64,000 bases of DNA from the IMG/VR virus record IMGVR_UViG_3300042870_001240; one strand, given 5' to 3'. Each line of letters opens with the position of its first letter. Position 1 is the stretch's first letter. Position numbers and translations under genes: made by a program. The notes under the pieces were generated by a model. It worked only from the letters and a program-made list of their open reading frames with translations. It was not told where the DNA came from and ran no database searches. Below are positions 1,719-34,441 of this stretch, piece after piece. Source of the DNA: a virus (lineage: Duplodnaviria; Caudoviricetes).

Positions 1719-3590
1719 TTACTTATTATTCACCTCTTCAAATTCGACATCGGAACCATTAAATTCCACATCACCTGTTTGGTCATTAACCTGGTCATAC
1801 AGGTCCTGTGAAATCTTTTGGAATTTTAGATTCACCTCATCAACTAATGATTTGGATAATTCTACGTCCTTTTTACTGTGAGCCTCTTTTAATTTTTCAA
1901 GAGTTGACGTTATCTCAGACTTTTGTTCTTCGGATATTTTACCTTCCAAATCAGTTAACGATTTTTCAACGTTAAAAATTGTGCTGTCTGCGATATTAAT
2001 TGCGTCAGCATCTTCTTTTGCTTTTTTATCAGACTCAGCATTAATTTCGGCCTCCTTTTTCATTTTTTCAATCTCCTCTTTAGATAATCCTGAAGAAGAT
2101 TCAATTCTAATTGATTGTTGTTTGTTTGTTGCTTTATCCATTGCCGAAACATTTATAATACCGTTAGTATCAATATCAAAAGTAACTTCAACTTGAGGAA
2201 CACCTCTCATCGCAGGTGGTAAGCCATCTAAATGGAATCTACCAATAGTTCGGTTATCTCTAACCATACTCCTTTCTCCCTGCAAAACGTGAATTTCAAC
2301 TGACGGTTGATTATCAACTGCCGTTGAGAATACCTGTGACTTCTTAGTTGGAATCGTGGTATTTGATTCAATTAGTTTTGTGAATACTCCACCCATTGTT
2401 TCAATACCCAAAGATAATGGTGTTACGTCTAATAACAATACATCTTTTACGTCTCCCGCTAATACACCACCTTGGATTGCCGCACCAAGAGCGACCACCT
2501 CATCAGGGTTAACTCCTTTTGAAGGTTCTTTACCAAAGAACTTTTTAACCGCATCTTGTATTGCCGGGATTCTTGTTGTTCCACCAACAAGGATAACCTC
2601 ATCAATATCAGAAACCTTAAGTTTTGCATTTTTCAATGCCGTTTTACAAGGTTCAATGGTTCTTTTAATTAAGTCGGCAGAAAGTTGTTCAAACTTTGCT
2701 CTCGTTAATGTTTTTACCAAGTGTTTTGGTCCAGTTGCATCGGCACTTAAATAAGGTAAGTTGATTTCTGTCTGAGGAGATGATGATAATTCAACCTTTG
2801 CTTTTTCAGCACCTTCTCTTAACCTTTGTAATGCCATAGCGTCTTTTGAGATATCTAAACCACCATTATCGTTCTTGAATTCCTCAACCAAGAAATCAAT
2901 AATGACTCTGTCAAAGTCATCACCACCTAAATGAGTATCCCCATCGGTAGATAATACCTCAAACACCCCATTACCAAGGTCTAATATAGATACGTCATGT
3001 GTACCACCTCCACAGTCAAATACAACGATTTTCATGTCTTTTGACATCTTATCAAGACCATACGCCAACGCCGCGGCGGTAGGTTCATTGATTATACGTC
3101 TAACAATTAATCCAGCAATTTCACCAGCTTCTTTAGTCGCTTGACGTTGTGCGTCGTTAAAATACGCAGGTACGGTAATAACCGCCTCAGTAACTTCAGT
3201 CCCCAAATAATCTTCAGCGGTTTGTTTCATCTTTTGAAGAATCATTGCCGAAATTTCTTGTGGTGAATACAATCTATCTTCTATAGATACTCTTGGTGTG
3301 TTCCCGTCACCTTTAACTAATTTATACGGAACTCTACCAACCTCACCTTTACTTTCGTCAAATGTTAAACCCATAAATCGTTTGATTGAGTAAACCGTTT
3401 TTTCAGGGTTTGTTACCGACTGTCTTTTTGCAGGGTCTCCGATTTTTCTTTCACCACCATTAATGAATCCAACAATTGAAGGGGTGGTTCTTTTTCCTTC
3501 ACTGTTTGTAATAACGACAGGTTCTCGTCCTTCCATGACCGTTACGCACGAATTTGTAGTTCCTAAATCTACTCCTATTATTTTTCCCAT
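1719..3590 (-). CDS. dnaK: Hsp70 chaperone DnaK
   Basis: [50 protein letters not shown]; full length, 623 aa. Confidence 0.98.
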
Positions 3591-7548: not shown

Positions 7549-9480
7549 TTATTTTATTTTTATTTTCATTTTAGTACCAATTTCATTCTTCTCACAAGTA
7601 ATCTTAAACTTATGTTCTTCCAAGATTGCGACACAAATATTTAACCCTAATCCAGTCCCAGATTCTTTTTGTCCTTCTTTTCTTGTATAAGGTTTGGATA
7701 AATAATTAAAATCGTCTTGAGTAATACCTCTACCGTTATCTTGTATGTAAATTGAATCCTCATCACCATATACCTTAACAAACTTTGTTTCGGAGTCGTT
7801 ATATTTTAAACCATTCCTAATTAGATTATCAACTGCGGTACAGAACAACGGTTCATTAAGTTCAATGGTTGGTAAATTATCGTCTAATATCACCTGACTT
7901 ATATAAGCCGTTGATGATAAATAATCTGCAAGAATATTTTTTACATTACATTCGGTCTTGTTTAATACCACATCTTTCTTAACTAGATTGGTAAACTCAT
8001 AAACCCCTTTATAAACTTTTTGTGAGTGTTTAAGACCTTCCTTAATCATTTTAAGTGGTGCCTCAATTTTAAGGTTAGTAATATCTTCTTGGGATAATCT
8101 CCTTTCTAATGAATTAACCCCTCTTGGTATATAAGTATTAATCCCTGAGTGCATATCATGTCTTAATATTTTAGCCGCGTGTTCTAAGTAGGTATTTTTC
8201 TTTTCAATTTCCTTCTTTTGTTCATAAGAAGTAGTAATGTCTGTAGCGATTTTCATAACACGATAAATCTTACCATCAGTACCAATAATAGGATTGTAAG
8301 TCGCCTGTAGATATACTAAAGACCCGTCTTTTTTGACTCTAACAATTTCACCTGAAAATAACTCACCATTATTTAATTTTTCCCAAAAAAGAGAATAGTC
8401 ATCGCTTTTCGAATATTCATCGTCAATAAAAATTCTGTGGTGTTTTCCGACAACCTCATCTTGTGACGAATATCCCATAGTACCTAAAAACAAGTCATTC
8501 GCAAAAATAATGTTACCTTCTAAATCAAATTCAATAACGGCATTAGATTTGTTTATCGCATTCATTCTATTCCGAATCTCCATCTCTTTTTTCTTAAGTT
8601 CCGTAACGTCTTGTCTAATTGATGAAAACCCGTCTAACTTACCATTCTTATCGAATTTTGCTTTGATGAATGTGTCAACGTAATATAATTCTCCTGATTT
8701 TCCTTTATTGGTAACAACGTCATTCCATATTTCACCATTCATTACCGTCTTATACATCTTACCCCAATAACCGTCAGGTTGTAATCCCGAATTAACAATA
8801 ATATGGTCCTTGCCTTTTACTTCGTCTAAAGACCATCCAGAAACTTCCTCAAATTTTTTATTAACGTAGGTTATTTTACCGTATTTATCAGCAACCGAAA
8901 CAATTGCGGCACTATTTAAAAAATTTTCAGTTTCTTTATTTATTCTCAATAAATCATTTCCTTCTTTAACTGAATAAGTAAAACTATAAAGAGATGATAA
9001 TAGTTGTGCAAAATCAACCTCAGAACTATCCCACTCTCTAAGTGTTAGTGACTCAATACAAATTACCCCAATGGTTTCCCCTTTATAAATAATAGGAACA
9101 TCTAACATAGATTTTACCCCAAGAGGTTTTAAATACGTTTCGGTAAAACAAGAAGTCGCTTGGTGTATTTCGGCATCATTTGCAATGATAATTGGGTTTT
9201 CTAATAACGCTAAGAAATAGGATTGGAAATCTTTTTTATAAAGTGTTATGTCTTGATACCAACTGTTTTCAGATTTAATATGTAATTGTTCACATATAAT
9301 TTCAGACTTATCTTCATTGTATAACCATATTGAACACCTATCGGCATTTATTGATTCCGTAACTTCTTTAGTTAATACTTTAGCACCTTCAGTTGTATTA
9401 CCTTCATAAAATAAAGGATTGTGTGATTGGGAGATAAGTACCTTATTTAATTTTTTAGTATAGTCAAGATGTTTTATCAT
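7549..9480 (-). CDS. Soluble GAF-PAS-PAS sensor histidine kinase
   Basis: GAF (ADRCSIW..LDVPI), two PAS domains (ITYVNKKF; IIFANDLF), H-box RHDM, N-box NLIRNGLKY, DNGRG, GTGLGL. Confidence 0.92.
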   Translation of the reverse strand: MIKHLDYTKKLNKVLISQSHNPLFYEGNTTEGAKVLTKEVTESINADRCSIWLYNEDKSEIICEQLHIKSENSWYQDITLYKKDFQSYFLALLENPIIIANDAEIHQATSCFTETYLKPLGVKSMLDVPIIYKGETIGVICIESLTLREWDSSEVDFAQLLSSLYSFTYSVKEGNDLLRINKETENFLNSAAIVSVADKYGKITYVNKKFEEVSGWSLDEVKGKDHIIVNSGLQPDGYWGKMYKTVMNGEIWNDVVTNKGKSGELYYVDTFIKAKFDKNGKLDGFSSIRQDVTELKKKEMEIRNRMNAINKSNAVIEFDLEGNIIFANDLFLGTMGYSSQDEVVGKHHRIFIDDEYSKSDDYSLFWEKLNNGELFSGEIVRVKKDGSLVYLQATYNPIIGTDGKIYRVMKIATDITTSYEQKKEIEKKNTYLEHAAKILRHDMHSGINTYIPRGVNSLERRLSQEDITNLKIEAPLKMIKEGLKHSQKVYKGVYEFTNLVKKDVVLNKTECNVKNILADYLSSTAYISQVILDDNLPTIELNEPLFCTAVDNLIRNGLKYNDSETKFVKVYGDEDSIYIQDNGRGITQDDFNYLSKPYTRKEGQKESGTGLGLNICVAILEEHKFKITCEKNEIGTKMKIKIK

Positions 9481-16207: not shown

Positions 16208-17329
16208 TTAATTTGATAACGGTGCTTTTATACTTGGATGTGATTCATAGTTTTCTAGTATCACATCTCCAACTGAACTACAGAATATACCATCCCTAAC
16301 GTGTACCGTTGGTAACTTCATAGGTTCTCTACTAATTTGTTCTTTCGCCTGTTCAATATGATTTGAATATAAGTGAACGTCACCTAGATTACCAATCAAT
16401 TCATCAGGAACCATATTCATCTCATCGGCAATCATCATCAATAATAAACCGTATGATGCAATATTGAACGGTAGTCCAAGTAGTGTATCTACTGAACGTT
16501 GATTCCACATTAGAGAGATTGCTCGTTTAGGGTACCCATTATCATCTAACCATTTAGAGTATGAATAATCTCTATCCAGACTATCATTATGACCAAATAA
16601 ATCACATCTTCCTTTATGACTCAACTCTCTTGTATAAACTTGAAAACCATAATGACAAGGTGGAAGCACCATTTTATCTATCTCACCTACATTCCAAGCA
16701 TTAACCATTAATCGTCTTGAGTCTGGATTTGTTTTAAGGTCGTTGATTAGGTTTTGAATTTGGTCAATTGAATTATTTTGGTACGTTACTTTAACATCAT
16801 ATTTACTATAATCACCACCATCATGAATTAAGTCCATAACTTTAACTTTGTCAGAACTTTTTACATTTTCTAAATCATAATTTACTACATTCTTTCTTCC
16901 CCACTTTCTCCACTGCTTACCATAAATTGGACCTAATTCACCCCACTTCTCAGCAAACTCATCATCTGTTTTGATTTTGTTGATGAATTCTTCTATTGTT
17001 AAAAGTATAGGTCTAACTCCATACTCCCCAATTTTACTGCCTTCTTTAAGAATATAGTACTTATACGCATCACCATCCCAAATATGACAATTGTTATCAA
17101 CAAGGAATTTAATGTGTGTATCACCTCGTAAGAACCAAAGAAGTTCTGTTACAATTGATTTCCAAGCCATCTTTTTAGTTGTGAGTAAAGGAAACCCATC
17201 ACTCATTTTATGACGTATTTGTCTACCAAACACTGATAGTGTTCCCGTGCCTGTTCTGTCTTGTTTAGTCACTCCATTATCTAAGATGTCTTGAAGTAGG
17301 TCTGTGTATTGTTTATCTAATTTATTCAT
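16208..17329 (-). CDS. thyA: Thymidylate synthase with three insertions
   Basis: DRTGTGT, ELLWFLRG, LPPCH, QRSVD..LGLPFN, GDVHLYSNH. Confidence 0.97.
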   Translation of the reverse strand: MNKLDKQYTDLLQDILDNGVTKQDRTGTGTLSVFGRQIRHKMSDGFPLLTTKKMAWKSIVTELLWFLRGDTHIKFLVDNNCHIWDGDAYKYYILKEGSKIGEYGVRPILLTIEEFINKIKTDDEFAEKWGELGPIYGKQWRKWGRKNVVNYDLENVKSSDKVKVMDLIHDGGDYSKYDVKVTYQNNSIDQIQNLINDLKTNPDSRRLMVNAWNVGEIDKMVLPPCHYGFQVYTRELSHKGRCDLFGHNDSLDRDYSYSKWLDDNGYPKRAISLMWNQRSVDTLLGLPFNIASYGLLLMMIADEMNMVPDELIGNLGDVHLYSNHIEQAKEQISREPMKLPTVHVRDGIFCSSVGDVILENYESHPSIKAPLSN

Positions 17330-18530: not shown

Positions 18531-19106
18531 TTATACTTTTTTATCCGCCGGTATGGAATCCGTCAATGATACCGTAAGACCTTTTCCGTATTCGTCTTGT
18601 CTTGATGGTTTTGTTGTGACAACATAATTAGGGTAAGTAAGAACTGCTTGGTCTTTAAGTTTAACTTCAATTCCTTTTCTATCCAAGATTCCTTTAACGA
18701 ACCTTTCACCTGATAAACCTAATTTACCTATAGTAGGGATACCTTTATTACTTACAAAGAAAACCCAATTACCTTCTTCCTTTGTAATTAATTTGGCAAT
18801 ACTATTACCAACTTTCGCCACGTCATTACTTTCCCATTCTTTACTACTTTCATTATAAACATAACCTAATTCAGATTCTTTAGGTAATTTCATGTTAGTT
18901 TTTACCGCCTTATTATTATTTTTTTGTCCCCAAACATTGAAAGTATCCCCATTAGACACAAAATATAATTTATTCGCCATTGTGTTTTCGGAATAACCAT
19001 CCTTTCTTGAGAACACATAGTCATATGTTGGTTCTGATTGTTCTCTAATAACTCTTTTTACAATATTTGCTAAATCGGTTTCGGTTAATCTTATTATTTT
19101 TGTCAT
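18531..19106 (-). CDS. Leader-family protein (MTKIIRLTETDL)
   Basis: RLTE.DL..IVKRVI.EQ leader. Confidence 0.75.
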   Translation of the reverse strand: MTKIIRLTETDLANIVKRVIREQSEPTYDYVFSRKDGYSENTMANKLYFVSNGDTFNVWGQKNNNKAVKTNMKLPKESELGYVYNESSKEWESNDVAKVGNSIAKLITKEEGNWVFFVSNKGIPTIGKLGLSGERFVKGILDRKGIEVKLKDQAVLTYPNYVVTTKPSRQDEYGKGLTVSLTDSIPADKKV

Positions 19107-21495: not shown

Positions 21496-22284
21496 ATGGA
21501 ACCAAATAGACTACTTTTATTATCAAAAAAATTACACCCATCGTTAAGAACCAAGACTCCATCGGTCATCAGCCAATTAATTTTAAAGGACATTCATTAC
21601 GAACCAATTAGAAATCTTTTAACAGGTAAAGAAATAATCATTTTATCGTTTTTAATTAATGGTCTGAATAGAACTGAGGACATTAATAGTTTGTATGAAC
21701 AAATTGTAAGCGGTATGTTTGTTTTTTCAATCCTTGAGGTTGATGATGTGGAACCTGAATACAATTGTGAAAATTGTGGGGGAGATGGGGATGTCATGTG
21801 TAATAACTGTGATGGTACTGGTGATGTTGATTGTTCAGATTGTGATGGGGACGGAGAAATTTATTCAAGCGATGATGATGGTGGAGGTACCTGTAATACG
21901 TGTCAAGGAGGTGGTAATGTCGTGTGTGACGAATGTAATGGTTCTGGTCGTGAGACTTGTTCAGAATGTTATGGTTCAGGTGCCACTTCCAAATACGGTT
22001 ATGTGACAATAACTCAAGATTTCTATGTAAGTTATGACCCTAAAATATATTCTTTATTAGAAACAAAAGATGAAGAAAGTGAAATGGATTCTGAGATTGA
22101 CCATAAAATTACAAAATCGTCAAGAACATTTATTTTTGATAGATTAGAGGGTGATACCGATAAGTTACCTAGCGAAGCATCAAATGAAGATAGAATTTTT
22201 GTTGGAATAGATAAAGGTGATGTTGAGTTTGGAAAGGGGTCGGATAAATTAATTGATTATAATAGTTTAGAACAATACATATAA
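21496..22284 (+). CDS. Protein with six DnaJ-type CxxCxGxG zinc-finger repeats and no J-domain
   Basis: CENCGGDG, CNNCDGTG, CSDCDGDG, CNTCQGGG, CDECNGSG, CSECYGSG; no HPD motif. Confidence 0.8.
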   Translation: MEPNRLLLLSKKLHPSLRTKTPSVISQLILKDIHYEPIRNLLTGKEIIILSFLINGLNRTEDINSLYEQIVSGMFVFSILEVDDVEPEYNCENCGGDGDVMCNNCDGTGDVDCSDCDGDGEIYSSDDDGGGTCNTCQGGGNVVCDECNGSGRETCSECYGSGATSKYGYVTITQDFYVSYDPKIYSLLETKDEESEMDSEIDHKITKSSRTFIFDRLEGDTDKLPSEASNEDRIFVGIDKGDVEFGKGSDKLIDYNSLEQYI

Positions 22285-22659: not shown

Positions 22660-23160
22660 TTATTTTTTTTCTTTAATGTCGATATAGTCGTTAACCTCAA
22701 GAGTACATAAAGTTTTTGGGATTGATACTAAACTAACATCATAGGTGTAAAATAGTTGATATTCTTCAGGTAATGCTTGATATAGAGTCTTAAATAAATT
22801 TTTAAGTTGTCTTCCATGGTTATACCCCTTTTCGAAGTGTTCATCCTGACCACTTTTATTACCCCACGAATAGTCAGAACCAAGATACGAGAATAATGAC
22901 GAGGTTTTAGGTAACACCATTTCAGGTCGTTCAGCATAAAAAGGTCTGATTGGTTCATTATAGTATTTTGAAACAAGATTCCAATCAACATATAAATCAA
23001 TGTAAAGATGAGCATCGTATTTTTGCCAATCAGGAAATAATTCCCACCAAAGTATAAACGGATATTTTTTTGCGGCGGATTTTACGACAAGGTCAATTCC
23101 TCGTCTTTGTTTTTCTGTTAAGTTTTTATCTCTTGATGTTAAAAATTTATTGTCACTCAT
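22660..23160 (-). CDS. Hypothetical protein
   Basis: TATTTAT upstream. Confidence 0.7.
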   Translation of the reverse strand: MSDNKFLTSRDKNLTEKQRRGIDLVVKSAAKKYPFILWWELFPDWQKYDAHLYIDLYVDWNLVSKYYNEPIRPFYAERPEMVLPKTSSLFSYLGSDYSWGNKSGQDEHFEKGYNHGRQLKNLFKTLYQALPEEYQLFYTYDVSLVSIPKTLCTLEVNDYIDIKEKK

Positions 23161-23250
23161 ATATTAATAAATATACGTAAACATAGAGTTGGTTTCAATC
23201 CATAAGATAAATTGTTAGTAAAAAAATCCCTCTTTGTTAGAGGGGGTTAA

Positions 23251-23436
23251 TTAACTTAACATTGCACGAATCGTATTCATTATTTGAATTTGTTTCGTTT
23301 GGAGTTGTTTGATTCTTGAGGTTTGGCTATCGTTCATTTCAATGTTCTCACCTTTAATTTCAGAAACTTGGTTTCCAAGTTTAGTGTGTTCATTTAATAA
23401 TTTTCCGTATTGGTCTGCTTTCTGTTGGTTGTTCAT
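23251..23436 (-). CDS. Small coiled-coil protein
   Basis: ORF followed by a terminator hairpin at about 23222-23247. Confidence 0.65.
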   Translation of the reverse strand: MNNQQKADQYGKLLNEHTKLGNQVSEIKGENIEMNDSQTSRIKQLQTKQIQIMNTIRAMLS

Positions 23437-23601
23437 AGTCTAATAATAACATAGTTTATTTAATATTAAATACCATAATTAATAATTTATATAACTCCAC
23501 CGAAAAACCCACAAATCTTTAGTTTGTGGGATGTAAAGTGGTTTTAGTTAGTTGACTTTTAAAACATTATAGTCCATAATTTAATTATGGAACTACCTAA
23601 T

Positions 23602-24045
23602 TTAGTATGAAACAAATCCATTTGCAATGTTATTGAATAAACTAAGTGCGTTTTTTTCATTTCCAATAAATTTTTCACGTTTCTGTACCGATTTAGGTGT
23701 GTAAAGAACACTGTAAAATAACACTCCTTGAGATTTATAAATCTCAAATTCTCCATATTCTAACTTTTTACCGTCCTTATAAAACTCCCAAGATAAAGGT
23801 TTTTTAATATCAAAACCACCTAAGTTTGTAATTCGAGCGTTAGGTGGAAGTTTAACAACAACTGATGATGAAATCGAATTGGGTTGTTTCCATATACCAT
23901 TTTTTCCTTTTGGATTCATATAGGATAAAAACATATCCAATGATTTTATTTCTTCAGGTGTTAATTTAGTATCAGATTGTTCCTCGATAACTCTTTTAAT
24001 GATGCGGGTTAAATCGTTTTCAGTTAGTCTTACTACTTTTTTCAT
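23602..24045 (-). CDS. Leader-family protein (MKKVVRLTENDL) located inside the IS remnant
   Basis: RLTE.DL leader; TATTTAT upstream. Confidence 0.75.
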   Translation of the reverse strand: MKKVVRLTENDLTRIIKRVIEEQSDTKLTPEEIKSLDMFLSYMNPKGKNGIWKQPNSISSSVVVKLPPNARITNLGGFDIKKPLSWEFYKDGKKLEYGEFEIYKSQGVLFYSVLYTPKSVQKREKFIGNEKNALSLFNNIANGFVSY

Positions 24046-24106
24046 AATTATATTTTTAATATAAATATCTATCAAAAAAAAAAACGATTTTTCTGAAAAA
24101 ATATTT

Positions 24107-24262
24107 TTAACCTTGATTTAAAATATATTCTCTAATTGTTTCTGGTGATGCTTCACCAATTGAACAAACAAAATAACCATCAGACCAAAAAGTTTTTTCT
24201 AACCAAAATTCTTGACTTAAAACATCCTTAAACAAGGAATAAACATATTGTCTGGTTATGGA
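24107..24262 (-). pseudogene. tnpA: 5'-truncated IS200/IS605 Y1 transposase
   Basis: Translates as ..TRQYVYSLFKDVLSQEFWLEKTFWSDGYFVCSIGEASPETIREYILNQG*, with the catalytic Y-x3-Q; HUH part missing. Confidence 0.88.
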
Positions 24263-24265
24263 ATA

Positions 24266-24360
24266 GAATCGGACATTAAACAAAAACAGGAGGAGGCGTT
24301 GCCATTAGGTAAGTCTGTGATTTCTGAAGCCCAACCATCTTTAGTGGTTGGGTAGTTCAC
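24266..24360 (+). ncRNA. tnpB 3' end / omegaRNA-like scaffold remnant at the IS right end
   Basis: ..AAACAAAAACAGGAGGAGGCGTTGCCATTAGGTAAGTCTGTGATTTCTGAAGCCC..GTTCAC resembles tnpB tails that overlap the reRNA. Expression is unknown. Confidence 0.5.
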
Positions 24361-25031
24361 GGTAACATGGAATAATAATCATTTTCAAATTGAGGGACTA
24401 ATAATACTTTACCTGAAGATTTTATACCCAATCTGTCGGCCCATTCATACAATTCTTTATTTGGTCTATCACCCATTCCAGATATATGATAAGTTGACAT
24501 CCCCCATCTATAAATCATGGTAGGTTTTCTATTGGCGTCAAATATCTTTGCGTTATTCTTGAAGGTTATGTCAAAGTCTTCACCCCAACTTTTATCAGGG
24601 AATGTGATTCTATTTAAATATGATTTGGTATACACATTACCATTATTAACCATCCCACTAATTTTAACATACTTATTATTTTCAAAGTAATAGTGGTTAT
24701 TACTACGATATATTTCATAACCAGGTCGAGATTTAATATCGTCCTCTGTTAATTTTAATGCGTTTGGAGCCAATAAGTCATCATCGTCTAATCTATAAAT
24801 GTAATCAAAATTACACTGACTAAATCCCCATCTTAACTTTTCAGAGATTGATGAGAACCTTTCAGAACAATTATAAATTTTAATTTGTGGGTGGTTAAAT
24901 ACATATTCGACATCAGGATAGTCATTAATAATTACCATTTCGGATGTCGGGTTGTTTTGTAATAAAAAAGACTGTATTGATTCCTCCAATAGAGGTTGTC
25001 TCTGATAGGTGAGAGTTAGTACTGAAATCAT
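24357..25031 (-). CDS. Glycosyltransferase family 2
   Basis: ISVLTLTYQR..L..SI.S, MVIIND, RLDDDD; the stop codon is supplied by the IS right end. Confidence 0.85.
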   Translation of the reverse strand: MISVLTLTYQRQPLLEESIQSFLLQNNPTSEMVIINDYPDVEYVFNHPQIKIYNCSERFSSISEKLRWGFSQCNFDYIYRLDDDDLLAPNALKLTEDDIKSRPGYEIYRSNNHYYFENNKYVKISGMVNNGNVYTKSYLNRITFPDKSWGEDFDITFKNNAKIFDANRKPTMIYRWGMSTYHISGMGDRPNKELYEWADRLGIKSSGKVLLVPQFENDYYSMLP

Positions 25032-25071
25032 AAGGAAAAGATAAATTATTGATGAGTTATGTAAACCATGA

Positions 25072-25401
25072 TTACAAATCAATAATTACTAATTGTTTAA
25101 ACTGAAAATCCCATTTAGAACCATATTCTTCAACCTCAAGACCAAACATTGAATCAACATTTCTTCTAATTGGTTTTGATATTTCCTTTAATTGATGGGT
25201 TTTATATAACCCCACCGAATTGTTCAATACAATATTAATAATCGTACGACTAATCGTCCTATCATCATCATTGTCAAAATCCCCTGACGCCAAAAAAACC
25301 TTTGTTTCGGTAAAGTAAACTTTCTCCACCTCAGGATAGTTCTTGAGTATATAGGACTCTATAGTTTCGGTTAATTTATTTTCTGTTATTATATATTTCA
25401 T
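25072..25401 (-). CDS. MKYIITE leader-family protein
   Basis: Leader motif; 5' DNA shared with 25414-25752. Confidence 0.75.
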   Translation of the reverse strand: MKYIITENKLTETIESYILKNYPEVEKVYFTETKVFLASGDFDNDDDRTISRTIINIVLNNSVGLYKTHQLKEISKPIRRNVDSMFGLEVEEYGSKWDFQFKQLVIIDL

Positions 25402-25413
25402 TTCTTTTTTAAA

Positions 25414-25752
25414 TTATAGGTCTGTTAAAACCCAAGTTCTTTTACCATATACATTAACCCTAGGTGTTAGGTCGTTTAAATTATAGGTCTCTCCCAACCA
25501 TTGTTTTATAATATCCTCTATTTGTTTAGATTCCAACCCAAAAATGGATTTTAAAAACGACCAAATTTCATCGTTATTTATATAAACATCCCTATTTTTA
25601 TCATCATGATAATAGTAAAATAATATTAGTTTATTTTCATTAATATAAAATGTTTTACCATTTCTAACTATTGGTTTTAAATCACCAAACTTATCGTTAA
25701 ACCATTTCATGATTATCTGATTTATTCTATTTTCTGTTATTATATATTTCAT
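25414..25752 (-). CDS. MKYIITE leader-family protein
   Basis: Leader motif. Confidence 0.75.
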   Translation of the reverse strand: MKYIITENRINQIIMKWFNDKFGDLKPIVRNGKTFYINENKLILFYYYHDDKNRDVYINNDEIWSFLKSIFGLESKQIEDIIKQWLGETYNLNDLTPRVNVYGKRTWVLTDL

Positions 25753-25774
25753 TTCTTTAAATTAGTCAAAAATA

Positions 25775-26401
25775 TTAAGGATAGACTTTTAAGGCAAAAT
25801 CATACCCAAACCCTAAAAGTGTTTTTAGTTCGTATAGTCGTTTAATAACTTTATCTTTATAAGACGGTTCATCCTCACTATACCACCATTTACGTATATC
25901 TTTGTTTGAGAATAAGTCTTCGACATTAATATATACTTCAGCACCATTTTTGGTCATCGGTTCTATATACTTAATTTTTAATCCAGGATAAATGTCAGAA
26001 AAATCGTAAAATGGTTCACCTGTTAATTTATTAGTTTTATTTAATACCTTGGCAAATAATTTAAAATCATCGGTTAAATTTTTTTTATATACGTTAATAG
26101 GTTCGATAGTTTCAGATATTTCTTGTCCACCACACCTTTCTTCCCAATAACCTGTTATGTGATGAAACAAACCATTAAATAAAAATTCGGCAATTTCAGG
26201 ATAAGGTAAATCTTTTAAATCATAACATTCTTGATAATAATAATATAGTTCATCTGAAACACCCTCAAGGAAATGATTAGAGTTCTCGTAATCACAGGGA
26301 TACATACTTTCCATAAGATTGTCGACCACATGTTCAATAGCATCAGAACGTCTCCTTACGGACAATGAATGATATTGTGATTCTGTAATAAAGTATTTCA
26401 T
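25775..26401 (-). CDS. MKYFITE leader-family protein (two modules, internal ISE site)
   Basis: Start moved to MKYFITE. Confidence 0.75.
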   Translation of the reverse strand: MKYFITESQYHSLSVRRRSDAIEHVVDNLMESMYPCDYENSNHFLEGVSDELYYYYQECYDLKDLPYPEIAEFLFNGLFHHITGYWEERCGGQEISETIEPINVYKKNLTDDFKLFAKVLNKTNKLTGEPFYDFSDIYPGLKIKYIEPMTKNGAEVYINVEDLFSNKDIRKWWYSEDEPSYKDKVIKRLYELKTLLGFGYDFALKVYP

Positions 26402-26402
26402 A

Positions 26403-26996
26403 TTAAAATCCGTATCTTTGTTTTCTATCGACAGTGTCAACAATATCAAGATAGAAATCTTCTATCTCTCTATCACCTGATTCAATTTTGTTAATCACCT
26501 CATCTCTACGATACGCGGTATTTTTAACAATAAAATCCACCATCTCATCTTTAGTAATCCCCTCAGGTAATGTGGATTCTTTAGAACAAGCCACTTTTTT
26601 ATCATCAGTATCAACATCATCAATACCAAGTTCAGGTTCGCCCATTTTTCTAGCAAATTCTGTGGAGTATTTTTCCTCAAACCAATCAGAAATAACGTGT
26701 AAAACGTATGATTTCCTTACTCTAAACAAGGTCATAATATCTTTAACCAATTCTTCGTCAACCGACAAATGCCCGTTATAAAATTCACCATCTTCAAAGT
26801 AATAATAAGACCCCATTACCTCAATACCGTTTTTACACCAATCTTGTCTAAGATTACCATAATTACGTGATTTTGGGGTAGATATATATGTCACCCCCTT
26901 CATGTAGTTATCTAAGAACTTAATGATTAATGATTCAATGTTGGGGTTACCTTTAACAACTCTCTGATATTGGTCTTCAGTAATAAGATATTTCAT
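26403..26996 (-). CDS. MKYLITE leader-family protein
   Basis: Leader plus TATTTAT. Confidence 0.75.
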   Translation of the reverse strand: MKYLITEDQYQRVVKGNPNIESLIIKFLDNYMKGVTYISTPKSRNYGNLRQDWCKNGIEVMGSYYYFEDGEFYNGHLSVDEELVKDIMTLFRVRKSYVLHVISDWFEEKYSTEFARKMGEPELGIDDVDTDDKKVACSKESTLPEGITKDEMVDFIVKNTAYRRDEVINKIESGDREIEDFYLDIVDTVDRKQRYGF

Positions 26997-32644: not shown

Positions 32645-33265
32645 TTACCAAGCTTTACACGACCAATATCCTGGCGTTGTCTTATCTTTCTTCTCGGAAC
32701 ATTTATGTCTTGCTCTAAATGATTTTCTATGTGAAGGGATATCACGTTTAATTTCCATATTTGGGTCACCAAAATTAACCTTAACAACATTACCCTTGGA
32801 GTTCTTTACATATACAGACCTTTTCTTTGGTCCATCAGGAGTATAGAAAGGTTTATTCAATGTAACCTTACGTCCCTTGTATTCTGATTCTTGAATGGGT
32901 AGAATTTCAACGGAACCATATTGGTCCTCATATATTTTCTTACCTTTAATGTTTGGTAAATAAGATTCTGACTGAACATCGGAATCATCACCTTTAATCT
33001 CATTCATTAAGAAATCAAAAACTTGGTCCATATTGTTCTTAGCTTCAGAAATATGGTCTTGAGCCCAATCATGTCCGTTATTTAATATCTCCTCAATTTG
33101 ATTTTCATCAAAGTCCAATAGATATTCACATTGTCTCTTCATCTGTTGTAGATTTGAAAAGAACATATAACGATTATTACCTTCTTCGGTCATTTCGTTT
33201 TCTTCAACAACTCGTTTAACAATACGGGTTAAATCAGATTCGGTTAGTCTTACTATTTTTTTCAC
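32645..33265 (-). CDS. Leader-family protein (GTG start, KKIVRLTESDL) with a C-terminal RKSFRARH.C..YWSC module
   Basis: Leader plus a module I recognise from T4-like phage hypothetical proteins. Confidence 0.75.
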   Translation of the reverse strand: MKKIVRLTESDLTRIVKRVVEENEMTEEGNNRYMFFSNLQQMKRQCEYLLDFDENQIEEILNNGHDWAQDHISEAKNNMDQVFDFLMNEIKGDDSDVQSESYLPNIKGKKIYEDQYGSVEILPIQESEYKGRKVTLNKPFYTPDGPKKRSVYVKNSKGNVVKVNFGDPNMEIKRDIPSHRKSFRARHKCSEKKDKTTPGYWSCKAW

Positions 33266-33340
33266 GGTATATATTTGTTTATATATAAATATCAAACAAA
33301 TAAAAAAAGGGAGTTAAGATATTAACCCAAAAAAAGAGAA

Positions 33341-33931: not shown

Positions 33932-34441
33932 TTATAATTGATTTTTAAAATCACTGTATTCGTATGAAATTTTTCTTGGGTCAATTTCTGTCACATTAGC
34001 ACCAATTTTTTCAAATTGTTTTAATACCTTTTTGGCGTCATTTCTTGTTTCAGGTAATGCGGGATAGTCACCATTTAAAAAAAATTCAATATTATTTGAA
34101 TATTTATTAATATCAAATACTTTTGTAGCTCCTGTATCAACATCTTCAGTTGTCATCACAAATTCATTTTGATGATAACCTGCTCTTGGTGATTCAATAT
34201 TTACAATTCTAACTCTGTATGTTTGCTCATCCTGTTTTTTTACGACTATGGAGATTATATCCCTATCTTGATTTAAACCAAACTCTTTTCCATGTGATGC
34301 AAATCTATCGGCAAGTTTTGTATAACCTTTTTTATCAGCAATCTTAGAAGCTTTCTCATAGGTACTTTTATCAAGTTCACTAATGGTTTTCTTAACAATT
34401 CTAATTAAATCAGATTCCGTTAATCTTATAACTTTTTTCAT
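33932..34441 (-). CDS. MKKVIRLTESDL leader-family protein
   Basis: Leader plus TATTTAT. Confidence 0.75.
   Translation of the reverse strand: MKKVIRLTESDLIRIVKKTISELDKSTYEKASKIADKKGYTKLADRFASHGKEFGLNQDRDIISIVVKKQDEQTYRVRIVNIESPRAGYHQNEFVMTTEDVDTGATKVFDINKYSNNIEFFLNGDYPALPETRNDAKKVLKQFEKIGANVTEIDPRKISYEYSDFKNQL

Follow-up and report, generated by a model that had tools for sequence, protein, structure and literature searches.

A cargo-bearing, non-autonomous IS200/IS605 copy, probably young, lies silently at the end of a glycosyltransferase gene in a large uncultivated phage

The DNA analysed here, referred to as the window, is a stretch of 64,000 nucleotides from a virus of the Caudoviricetes (IMG/VR record IMGVR_UViG_3300042870_001240). 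On its minus strand lies a glycosyltransferase family 2 (GT2) gene (24357-25082; Pfam Glycos_transf_2, E 1e-10), and the last bases of this gene belong to an insert that we describe here as a derivative of an IS200/IS605 transposon with a passenger, or cargo, gene. The insert occupies positions 23491-24360, exactly 870 nt, and lies directly 3' of the motif TTTAT (23486-23490, plus strand) without target duplication; its left flank ends in ...AATTTAT and its right flank begins with GGTAACATGG. An initial annotation, made from the letters of the sequence, had proposed such a silent insertion without duplication and had suggested a search for the empty allele in related phages. This search yielded five related contigs with an empty site, two viral (L001, L002) and three from metagenomes (L203, L204, L205), against which the insertion is exact. 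The empty alleles read ...TAATAATTTAT|GGTAACAT... with no extra bases, and both junctions are unambiguous. When the region was compared by BLAST with GT2-bearing loci, L001 and L002 aligned through window position 23490 and resumed at about 24353 with an overlap of 8 nt, and the alignment break falls between TTTAT and GGTAAC. The metagenome contigs were recovered by a scan that used the 35 nt right of the element as a pattern. They are 96-99% identical to the window flanks, all are empty (...AATTAATAATTTAT|GGTAACATGGAATAATAATC...), and each has the exact TTTAT together with the exact 35-nt right flank. The first 20 nt of this flank (24361-24380) have one mismatch in L001 and two in L002. In nucleotide identity, the five relatives range from 99% to about 72%. 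L203 matches the window without a difference across 441 nt left and 272 nt right of the insert, and hence the insertion appears to be recent and to have occurred within this population. A scan of viral contigs gave no match to the exact occupied junction, and none of the three siblings L203-L205 is occupied. TTTAT, which is kept at the empty alleles and stands 5' of left-end junctions, is also the expected transposon-associated motif (TAM) for a cognate TnpB.

The silence of the insertion results from the sequence of the element end. On the minus strand the empty allele of the GT2 gene ends in TTA CCA TAA and the window allele in TTA CCG TGA, both of which encode L-P-stop; occupied and empty alleles thus yield an identical product, as had been claimed. 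The right end (RE) of the element supplies the stop codon TGA (24357-24359) plus the last third-position base. Because the RE terminates in ...GTTCAC and the complement of the target reads ATAAA, A-TAA becomes G-TGA and in this frame the GT2 protein is unchanged, which shows how insertions at ...A-TAA-A gene ends become silent. The RE-supplied TGA also ends three other genes (at L210, L164 and L155), which makes four of 50 distinct RE junctions. At eleven junctions a flanking open reading frame (ORF) of at least 60 codons enters the RE; four of these stop at the RE TGA, four at +17, two further on and one before the junction. The frame that uses the TGA of the RE is thus recurrent, with no enrichment over the other frames among these eleven junctions.

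Inside the insert, the left end (LE; 23491-23549, plus strand) is 96.6% identical to the LE of a full-length element, L191, and 91.7% identical to that of another, L210. It holds a subterminal hairpin (23508-23530), unique within the window, which has the loop TCTTTAG in common with the RE hairpin (24330-24352); hairpins of this kind arose in 0 of 100 shuffles by chance. The LE is followed by the intact cargo ORF of 147 aa (23602-24045, minus strand), which starts with a leader that we call RLTE (MKKVVRLTENDLTRIIKRVI) and has a TATTTAT box at -24 (24061-24067, minus strand). Next to it lies a 3' remnant of tnpA (24107-24217, minus strand), comprising about the last 47 codons and the stop of a Y1 HUH transposase gene (Pfam Y1_Tnp, E 3.5e-8, profile positions 79-121 of 121). 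This remnant is 83% identical to residues 90-136 of the L191 TnpA. A three-way alignment with the tnpA and tnpB sides of L191 places an internal deletion junction at 24218-24225, without strand, in an 8-nt microhomology (AAAACATC). Compared with full-length elements about 1.44 kb are missing, from tnpA codon ~90 to tnpB codon ~354, a loss that takes in the 5' part of tnpA, the promoter region between the divergent genes, and the first ~354 codons of tnpB. What remains of tnpB is its tail (codons 355-398), which together with the RE spans 24216-24360 on the plus strand and ends in TTCAC. The hairpins, the Y1_Tnp remnant and this tail bear out the IS200/IS605 origin that had been assigned. The presence of a tnpB tail had likewise been recognised correctly, whereas its length had been put at about 95 nt and is in fact 145 nt, with 96.5-97.9% identity to the tails of L191, L100 and L210 (96.5% for L191). 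Elsewhere in the 64-kb window no TnpB, TnpA or resolvase was detectable.

More than 118 loci were recovered when viral contigs were scanned for the hairpin motif that LE and RE have in common. Two full-length, autonomous relatives of the window element serve for comparison. L191 is 2,242 nt long and encodes tnpA, tnpB and an ORF with RLTE leader between LE and tnpA. Its TnpB (398 aa) has the domains HTH_OrfB_IS605, OrfB_IS605 and Cas12f1-like_TNB and matches the ISDra2 TnpB structures 8H1J/8BF8 with E 1e-75; its tnpA (136 aa; Y1_Tnp E 2e-33) is divergent from tnpB. The third ORF, 104 aa between the tnpA stop and the LE, combines the RLTE leader of the window with an unrelated body. The other autonomous copy, L210 (2,218 nt), shares its contig with L155, and this contig has an HSP70 region in common with the window at 73% nucleotide identity. 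The L210 TnpB and TnpA are 93% and 98% identical to those of L191, its tail is 97.9% identical to that of the window, and its slot ORF (128 aa) again has the RLTE leader, with a third unrelated body. TnpB is intact in L191, L100 and L210, and in L210 the residues D, E and D stand at the expected motifs, as judged by eye. The ends of L191 and L210 are 92-98% identical to those of the window. Thus, tnpB and tnpA with matching ends, for which a search had also been proposed, do exist in related contigs, though not in the 64-kb window.

The lineage follows common rules at its ends. Among the nine distinct LE junctions that pass a strict LE-plus-flank pattern, TTTAT stands directly 5' of the LE in eight and the ninth is off by one base. 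The REs end in TAGTTCA(C/A/T), and the hairpin stems covary over about 50 copies (ACC/GGT, CAA/TTG, CGA/TCG, TCA/TGA and others). The base directly 5' of the RE hairpin and the terminal base of the element form a Watson-Crick pair in 45 of 51 distinct REs (G-C 32, A-T 7, T-A 6); in the window these bases are G...C. The TnpA of IS608 recognises its cleavage site via pairing with bases 5' of the hairpin foot, and the covariation seen here would be the signature expected from guide/cleavage-site pairing of the IS608 type. Since the window ends obey all of these family rules, a cognate TnpA should be able to act on them. A Y1_Tnp transposase, subterminal hairpins in place of terminal inverted repeats, and insertion at a fixed motif without duplication place the lineage in IS200/IS605. 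The window copy is a derivative and not an autonomous member, because it holds only the C-terminal 47 tnpA codons, while L191 and L210 have full 136-aa genes. Among relatives with the HSP70 region of the window, a solo LE was seen after TTTTAT inside a duplicated leader (MEKRLSEELNQILY|LE; L193:9690-9790, also L176, L121, L122 and L132). One locus, L162, was considered as a second cargo element and rejected. Its apparent LE (L162:481-528, after TTTAT) is a single-hairpin mini-element with an LE-type 5' part (GTAACTCCACCGAAAAA) and an RE-type 3' end (TAGTTCAA) and was not counted; the same contig has a solo tail (2922-3071) and, nearby, an N6/N4 DNA methylase gene (650-1312).

The region that covers the tnpB tail and the RE deserves attention in its own right. 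A consensus fold of eleven tails of the sub-lineage (RNAalifold) has four helices with 33 pairs, 15 of which show compensatory changes. Within 24216-24360 these helices correspond to 24225-24238, 24249-24275, 24287-24326 and, as the last, the RE hairpin 24330-24352. It is the long third helix, dispensable for TnpA and located within the coding tail of tnpB, that shows the strongest covariation. The window tail folds in the same way (z = -3.07), and its window-specific changes break no pair. The reRNA (right-end RNA) of ISDra2 is about 150 nt long including a 16-nt guide (PMC8612924), a length that the retained 145 nt match; by the positional rule from ISDra2 (PMC8612924) the right flank (24361-24380, plus strand) would provide a guide of 16-20 nt. 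An OMEGA system (named for obligate mobile element-guided activity) comprises such a structured scaffold over the tnpB 3' end and RE and a TAM-flanked match to the guide at the empty site, and both are found here, the latter as TTTAT plus the exact 20-nt flank in the near-identical, cargo-free L203-L205. The TnpB nuclease gene that belongs in an OMEGA element is represented only by codons 355-398. The tail thus has the predicted sequence and structure that an omegaRNA needs, and its putative guide matches the empty allele of co-circulating siblings; the omegaRNA-type right end and the guide target put forward in the initial annotation stand, the former as a complete, structurally conserved module. 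Of 143 tail positions 3 have a window-specific substitution, as do 3 of 111 positions of the tnpA remnant (Fisher p = 1), and this equal rarity indicates that conservation of the tail reflects youth and not selection. For a promoter of a tail RNA there is only a weak sigma-70-like match (9/12) inside the scaffold; the tnpB promoter region is deleted. An Rfam search of 23000-25000 (E up to 10) returned matches at chance level, with no omegaRNA family and no intron. Solo tails of 120-145 nt recur at L130/L175, L199 and L200, whereas PATE-like minimal copies (palindrome-associated transposable elements, PATEs) keep about 41 nt of RE. At L175 (5676-6119, minus strand) and L130, a GIY-YIG ORF (Pfam E 1.4e-5) continues in frame into the final 46 tnpB codons, with an intact RE behind them, and the 5' boundary of this tail is almost the same as that of the window. 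A complete related genome of 257 kb (G007), host of the GIY-YIG fusion with its solo tail, encodes no full TnpB.

The cargo gene lies inside the element not only here, as had been noted, but also in copies at other sites. Close homologues (78-98% identical) were found in only four short metagenome contigs, and in each they adjoin parts of the same insertion sequence (IS). L201 has the same LE as the window behind a different flank that ends in TTTAT, L200 has the same RE with a different flank and a terminator-like hairpin in place of the LE, and in L199 the tail is joined directly to the cargo promoter. Diverged homologues (about 40%) occupy the same position relative to LE remnants in L202 and L155. 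An exhaustive profile-free search of 1.8 billion representatives returned only 28 relatives, about eleven of them full length, the others having only a 20-aa motif in common. The homologue at L206 has no tnpA remnant upstream, and that at L207-L209 lies just outside the RE of an IS607-type element (resolvase and TnpB). This element (L207:3440-5361, also L208 and L209) has a TnpB of 404 aa and stands behind a truncated RLTE leader (MKKIVRV-stop), as if the element had inserted into another leader gene. Both recovered autonomous copies, L191 and L210, fill the same slot with an RLTE-leader gene, and the cargo is for this reason a regular passenger of the IS lineage. The slot between LE and tnpA holds at least three unrelated bodies behind one conserved promoter-plus-leader segment, which is 82-91% conserved in L191, L202, L207 and L210. 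In comparison with L200, the ratio of non-synonymous to synonymous substitution rates (dN/dS) is 0.48, and no copy has an interrupted reading frame; the ORF is apparently under moderate constraint. The protein itself matches no family in Pfam, PHROGs or PADLOC; ESM Atlas scores reach only 0.75, and an AlphaFold2 model has a mean predicted local distance difference test score (pLDDT) of 50.5.

Three further RLTE-leader genes of the window lie outside any IS (18531-19106, 32645-33295 and 33932-34441, all on the minus strand). The motif of about 20 aa, (K/R)ΦTE(S/N)DLxRIVKRVI, recurs internally once or twice more in many database relatives, which argues for a repeatable module and not merely an N-terminal signal. 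A reading of the leader as an Arc/ribbon-helix-helix (RHH) strand-helix was dropped, given that there is no RHH family match and that the motif recurs inside proteins. A further, speculative reading of the leader would be a T4-type capsid-targeting or protease site (L/I-x-E). As to expression, TATTTAT is the top enriched 7-mer within 60 nt upstream of window ORF starts (35 of 95 ORFs, 11-fold), with positional peaks at -11 to -13 and -20 to -28, and is probably the promoter or gene-start box of this phage; the box that had been ascribed to the cargo gene is therefore well founded. The target of the IS, TTTAT, is contained within it. Behind the LE hairpin there is, on the minus strand, a TTTTT run; the site has an intrinsic-terminator-like score directly after the cargo gene, and the transposon end may double as the terminator of this gene. 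With its own TATTTAT box in front and this hairpin with T-run behind it, the gene is most likely expressed in the manner of other phage accessory genes.

The locus very probably represents a young, non-autonomous and cargo-bearing copy of an IS200/IS605 element, with IS605-like gene order and an ISDra2-like TnpB in its lineage, that was mobilised in trans. It lost about 1.44 kb, and with it most of tnpA and tnpB, by deletion at the 8-nt microhomology and kept both transposase-recognised ends, the passenger gene and the whole tnpB-tail/RE module. Entry into an L203-like genome would have occurred by single-strand 'peel-and-paste' insertion 3' of TTTAT, with TnpA provided in trans by an autonomous copy such as those of the L191/L210 type, and selection would have tolerated the insertion, because the RE turns A-TAA into G-TGA at the GT2 stop. 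Some observations weigh against this reading. The 64-kb window contains no source of TnpA or TnpB, and for this reason mobilisation in trans is something that we infer only. Among the other cargo copies an intact LE is found only in L201 and an intact RE only in L200, and L199 and L200 lack an LE; given this loss, some copies may have spread by recombination rather than by transposition. It is also possible, although we regard it as doubtful, that the insert is an inert relic, that is dead DNA save for the cargo, which neither transposes nor homes and whose gene is a 'moron' inherited vertically or by ordinary recombination. The lack of transposase and nuclease in the window, the absence of any selection signal on the ends beyond their young age, and the existence of decayed copies with eroded (L202, L207) or lost LEs (L199, L200) would fit. 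However, both ends of the window copy are intact and its RE obeys the guide/cleavage-base pairing rule, autonomous copies that are nearly identical circulate among phages of this group, and the same cargo-plus-end modules stand at several different sites. That the polarity is reversed, with the element ancestral and the five empty alleles being precise TnpA excisions with scarless donor joints, is very improbable. Excision of IS200/IS605 elements is indeed scarless (PMC10055086), and an excised site is hence indistinguishable from one never occupied, but all five available relatives are empty from 99% to about 72% identity. Moreover, the CCG TGA of the window is built from the RE end where empty alleles read CCA TAA, and the internal deletion and the few window-specific substitutions point to a recent arrival.

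A more far-reaching proposal, contained in the phrase 'homing cassette' of the initial annotation, is that the insert is active and RNA-guided. TnpB supplied by this phage itself, by a co-infecting one or by the host would cut cargo-free siblings, and repair from the occupied genome would copy the cassette into them ('non-restorative homing'). The RNA would be read from the plus strand, from about 24216-24225 to a point 16-20 nt beyond 24360, with TTTAT-GGTAACATGG as target. The anatomy claimed for such a cassette is present. Its scaffold is complete in length and helices, the tail changes of the window spare the pairing, siblings L203-L205 have the exact target with TAM, and the occupied allele, which has TTCAC in place of the TAM, would be immune. 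A TnpB that matches is encoded by L210 in a related phage contig, and its own tail is 98% identical to that of the window. Solo tails recur (L130/L175, L199, L200), two of them without an LE and hence not movable by TnpA. The concept has precedents in the PATE omegaRNAs, which are acted upon in trans (PMC10055086), and, on theory, in homing into phages or plasmids at co-infection (PMC13565253, section 6.1). Homing itself did not find such backing. There is no tnpB within the 64-kb window, the tnpB promoter region is deleted and only the weak sigma-70-like match remains, and the neighbouring genes are all on the opposite strand. Conservation of the tail does not exceed that of the dead tnpA remnant, a co-conversion tract around the insertion was looked for and not found, none of the three siblings is occupied, an occupied allele was not found in viral contigs, and the complete G007 genome has its solo tail without a TnpB. 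We therefore consider active homing rather unlikely at this locus; as an addition to the preferred reading of a young copy mobilised in trans, homing by TnpB acting in trans is mechanistically possible and a plausible, if tentative, extra. Similarly speculative is the notion of the IS605 lineage as an accessory-gene vehicle in large freshwater phages, with interchangeable gene bodies in its cargo slot and with transposase-less derivatives reduced to ends and omegaRNA, in which TnpB in trans would copy the cargo into siblings at co-infection and thereby form a natural RNA-guided gene drive.

The surrounding window has about 30% GC, is densely coding and has a predominance of minus-strand genes. 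The families encoded include HSP70, a GAF/PAS histidine kinase, a sulfatase, a thymidylate synthase, several GT2 glycosyltransferases, metallophosphatases and an endolysin-like protein with PG_binding_1 and GH19 domains. The GT2 gene next to the insert has more than 100 relatives among IMG/VR contigs, and the more distant of these are complete genomes of 114-117 kb with terminal repeats. The two closest contigs, of 61 kb and 40 kb, are rated 21% and 14% complete, respectively, which implies a genome size near 290 kb. We treat the source as a large uncultivated phage, based on the endolysin-like gene and the related complete genomes with terminal repeats. The same features led us to set aside a giant virus, which HSP70 and the GC content of 30% had brought to mind; a search of relatives for capsid proteins of nucleocytoplasmic large DNA viruses gave no match, but control searches were likewise silent. 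The kinase (7549-9480, minus strand; 643 aa, GAF-PAS), HSP70 (1719-3590, minus strand) and a Cys-rich protein (21496-22284, plus strand) with weak, sub-threshold DnaJ-type CxxCxGxG repeats form a set that is unusual for a phage. The thymidylate synthase (16208-17329, minus strand; 373 aa) has a single Pfam stretch that covers profile positions 1-265, and would thus contain roughly 100 extra residues within the domain. Directly downstream of the GT2 gene, four tandem paralogous ORFs (25072-26996, minus strand) start with MKY(I/L/F)ITE(N/D/S), and this array is another family in which variable bodies follow a conserved N-terminal leader.

According to the usual description, IS200/IS605 elements carry transposition genes only. 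The lineage described here regularly carries a passenger that belongs to a multi-gene family of phages, and three unrelated bodies occur in one slot. In other respects it resembles ISDra2 and IS605. Subterminal hairpins are found at both ends, insertion occurs without duplication 3' of a pentanucleotide (TTGAT for ISDra2, TTTAT here), the divergent arrangement of tnpA and tnpB is that of IS605, full-length copies encode a TnpB that matches the ISDra2 structures, and the omegaRNA region overlaps with both the tnpB 3' end and the RE. Differences are that the window copy has lost both enzymes, that the third, phage-type gene lies between tnpA and LE, and that the lineage resides in uncultivated AT-rich large phages, where its target is part of the TATTTAT box. 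PATEs, which derive from IS200/IS605 elements and are not autonomous, often encode omegaRNAs that are used in trans (Meers et al., PMC10055086). Like these, the window element has no transposase, has kept its LE, RE and omegaRNA region, and needs TnpA and TnpB from elsewhere. PATEs contain no protein-coding gene, however, whereas here, between intact ends, there is an intact 147-aa and apparently expressed passenger next to a tnpA pseudogene fragment. A third small ORF within the IS boundaries, on the tnpA strand and opposite to tnpB, has also been described in Arc-containing IS605 elements (bioRxiv 10.64898/2026.09.24.754181). In contrast to these, the third ORF here has no RHH/Arc match, combines one leader with three unrelated bodies and comes from a multi-copy phage family whose 20-aa motif is also found inside other proteins. 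With IStrons, in which a group I intron is joined to an IS605-type element, the window copy has in common that an IS200/IS605 derivative inserted without harm to the interrupted gene; here this is achieved by a synonymous base and a TGA stop from the RE and not by splicing, in line with the absence of an intron in the Rfam search.

TnpB-guided homing is known from transposon retention in bacteria and from spread among plasmids. Between co-infecting phages it has been proposed on theoretical grounds only (PMC13565253). The closest phage parallel is intronless homing in T-even phages by SegF and similar nucleases (PMC13565253), which shares with our locus the presence/absence polymorphism between co-circulating phages at one site and the proposed spread, by cutting of the empty allele at co-infection followed by recombinational repair. 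A homing endonuclease is encoded in its own cassette; within 23491-24360 there is no nuclease ORF, and the nuclease would be RNA-guided and encoded elsewhere. Unlike in the T-even case, no co-conversion tract is seen, and discrimination between alleles would rest on the insertion splitting the TAM from the target. With an occupied allele, exact empty alleles of siblings in public metagenomes, a complete guide-RNA module, and matching tnpA and tnpB genes in related contigs, the locus is a natural test case for phage-to-phage homing by TnpB.

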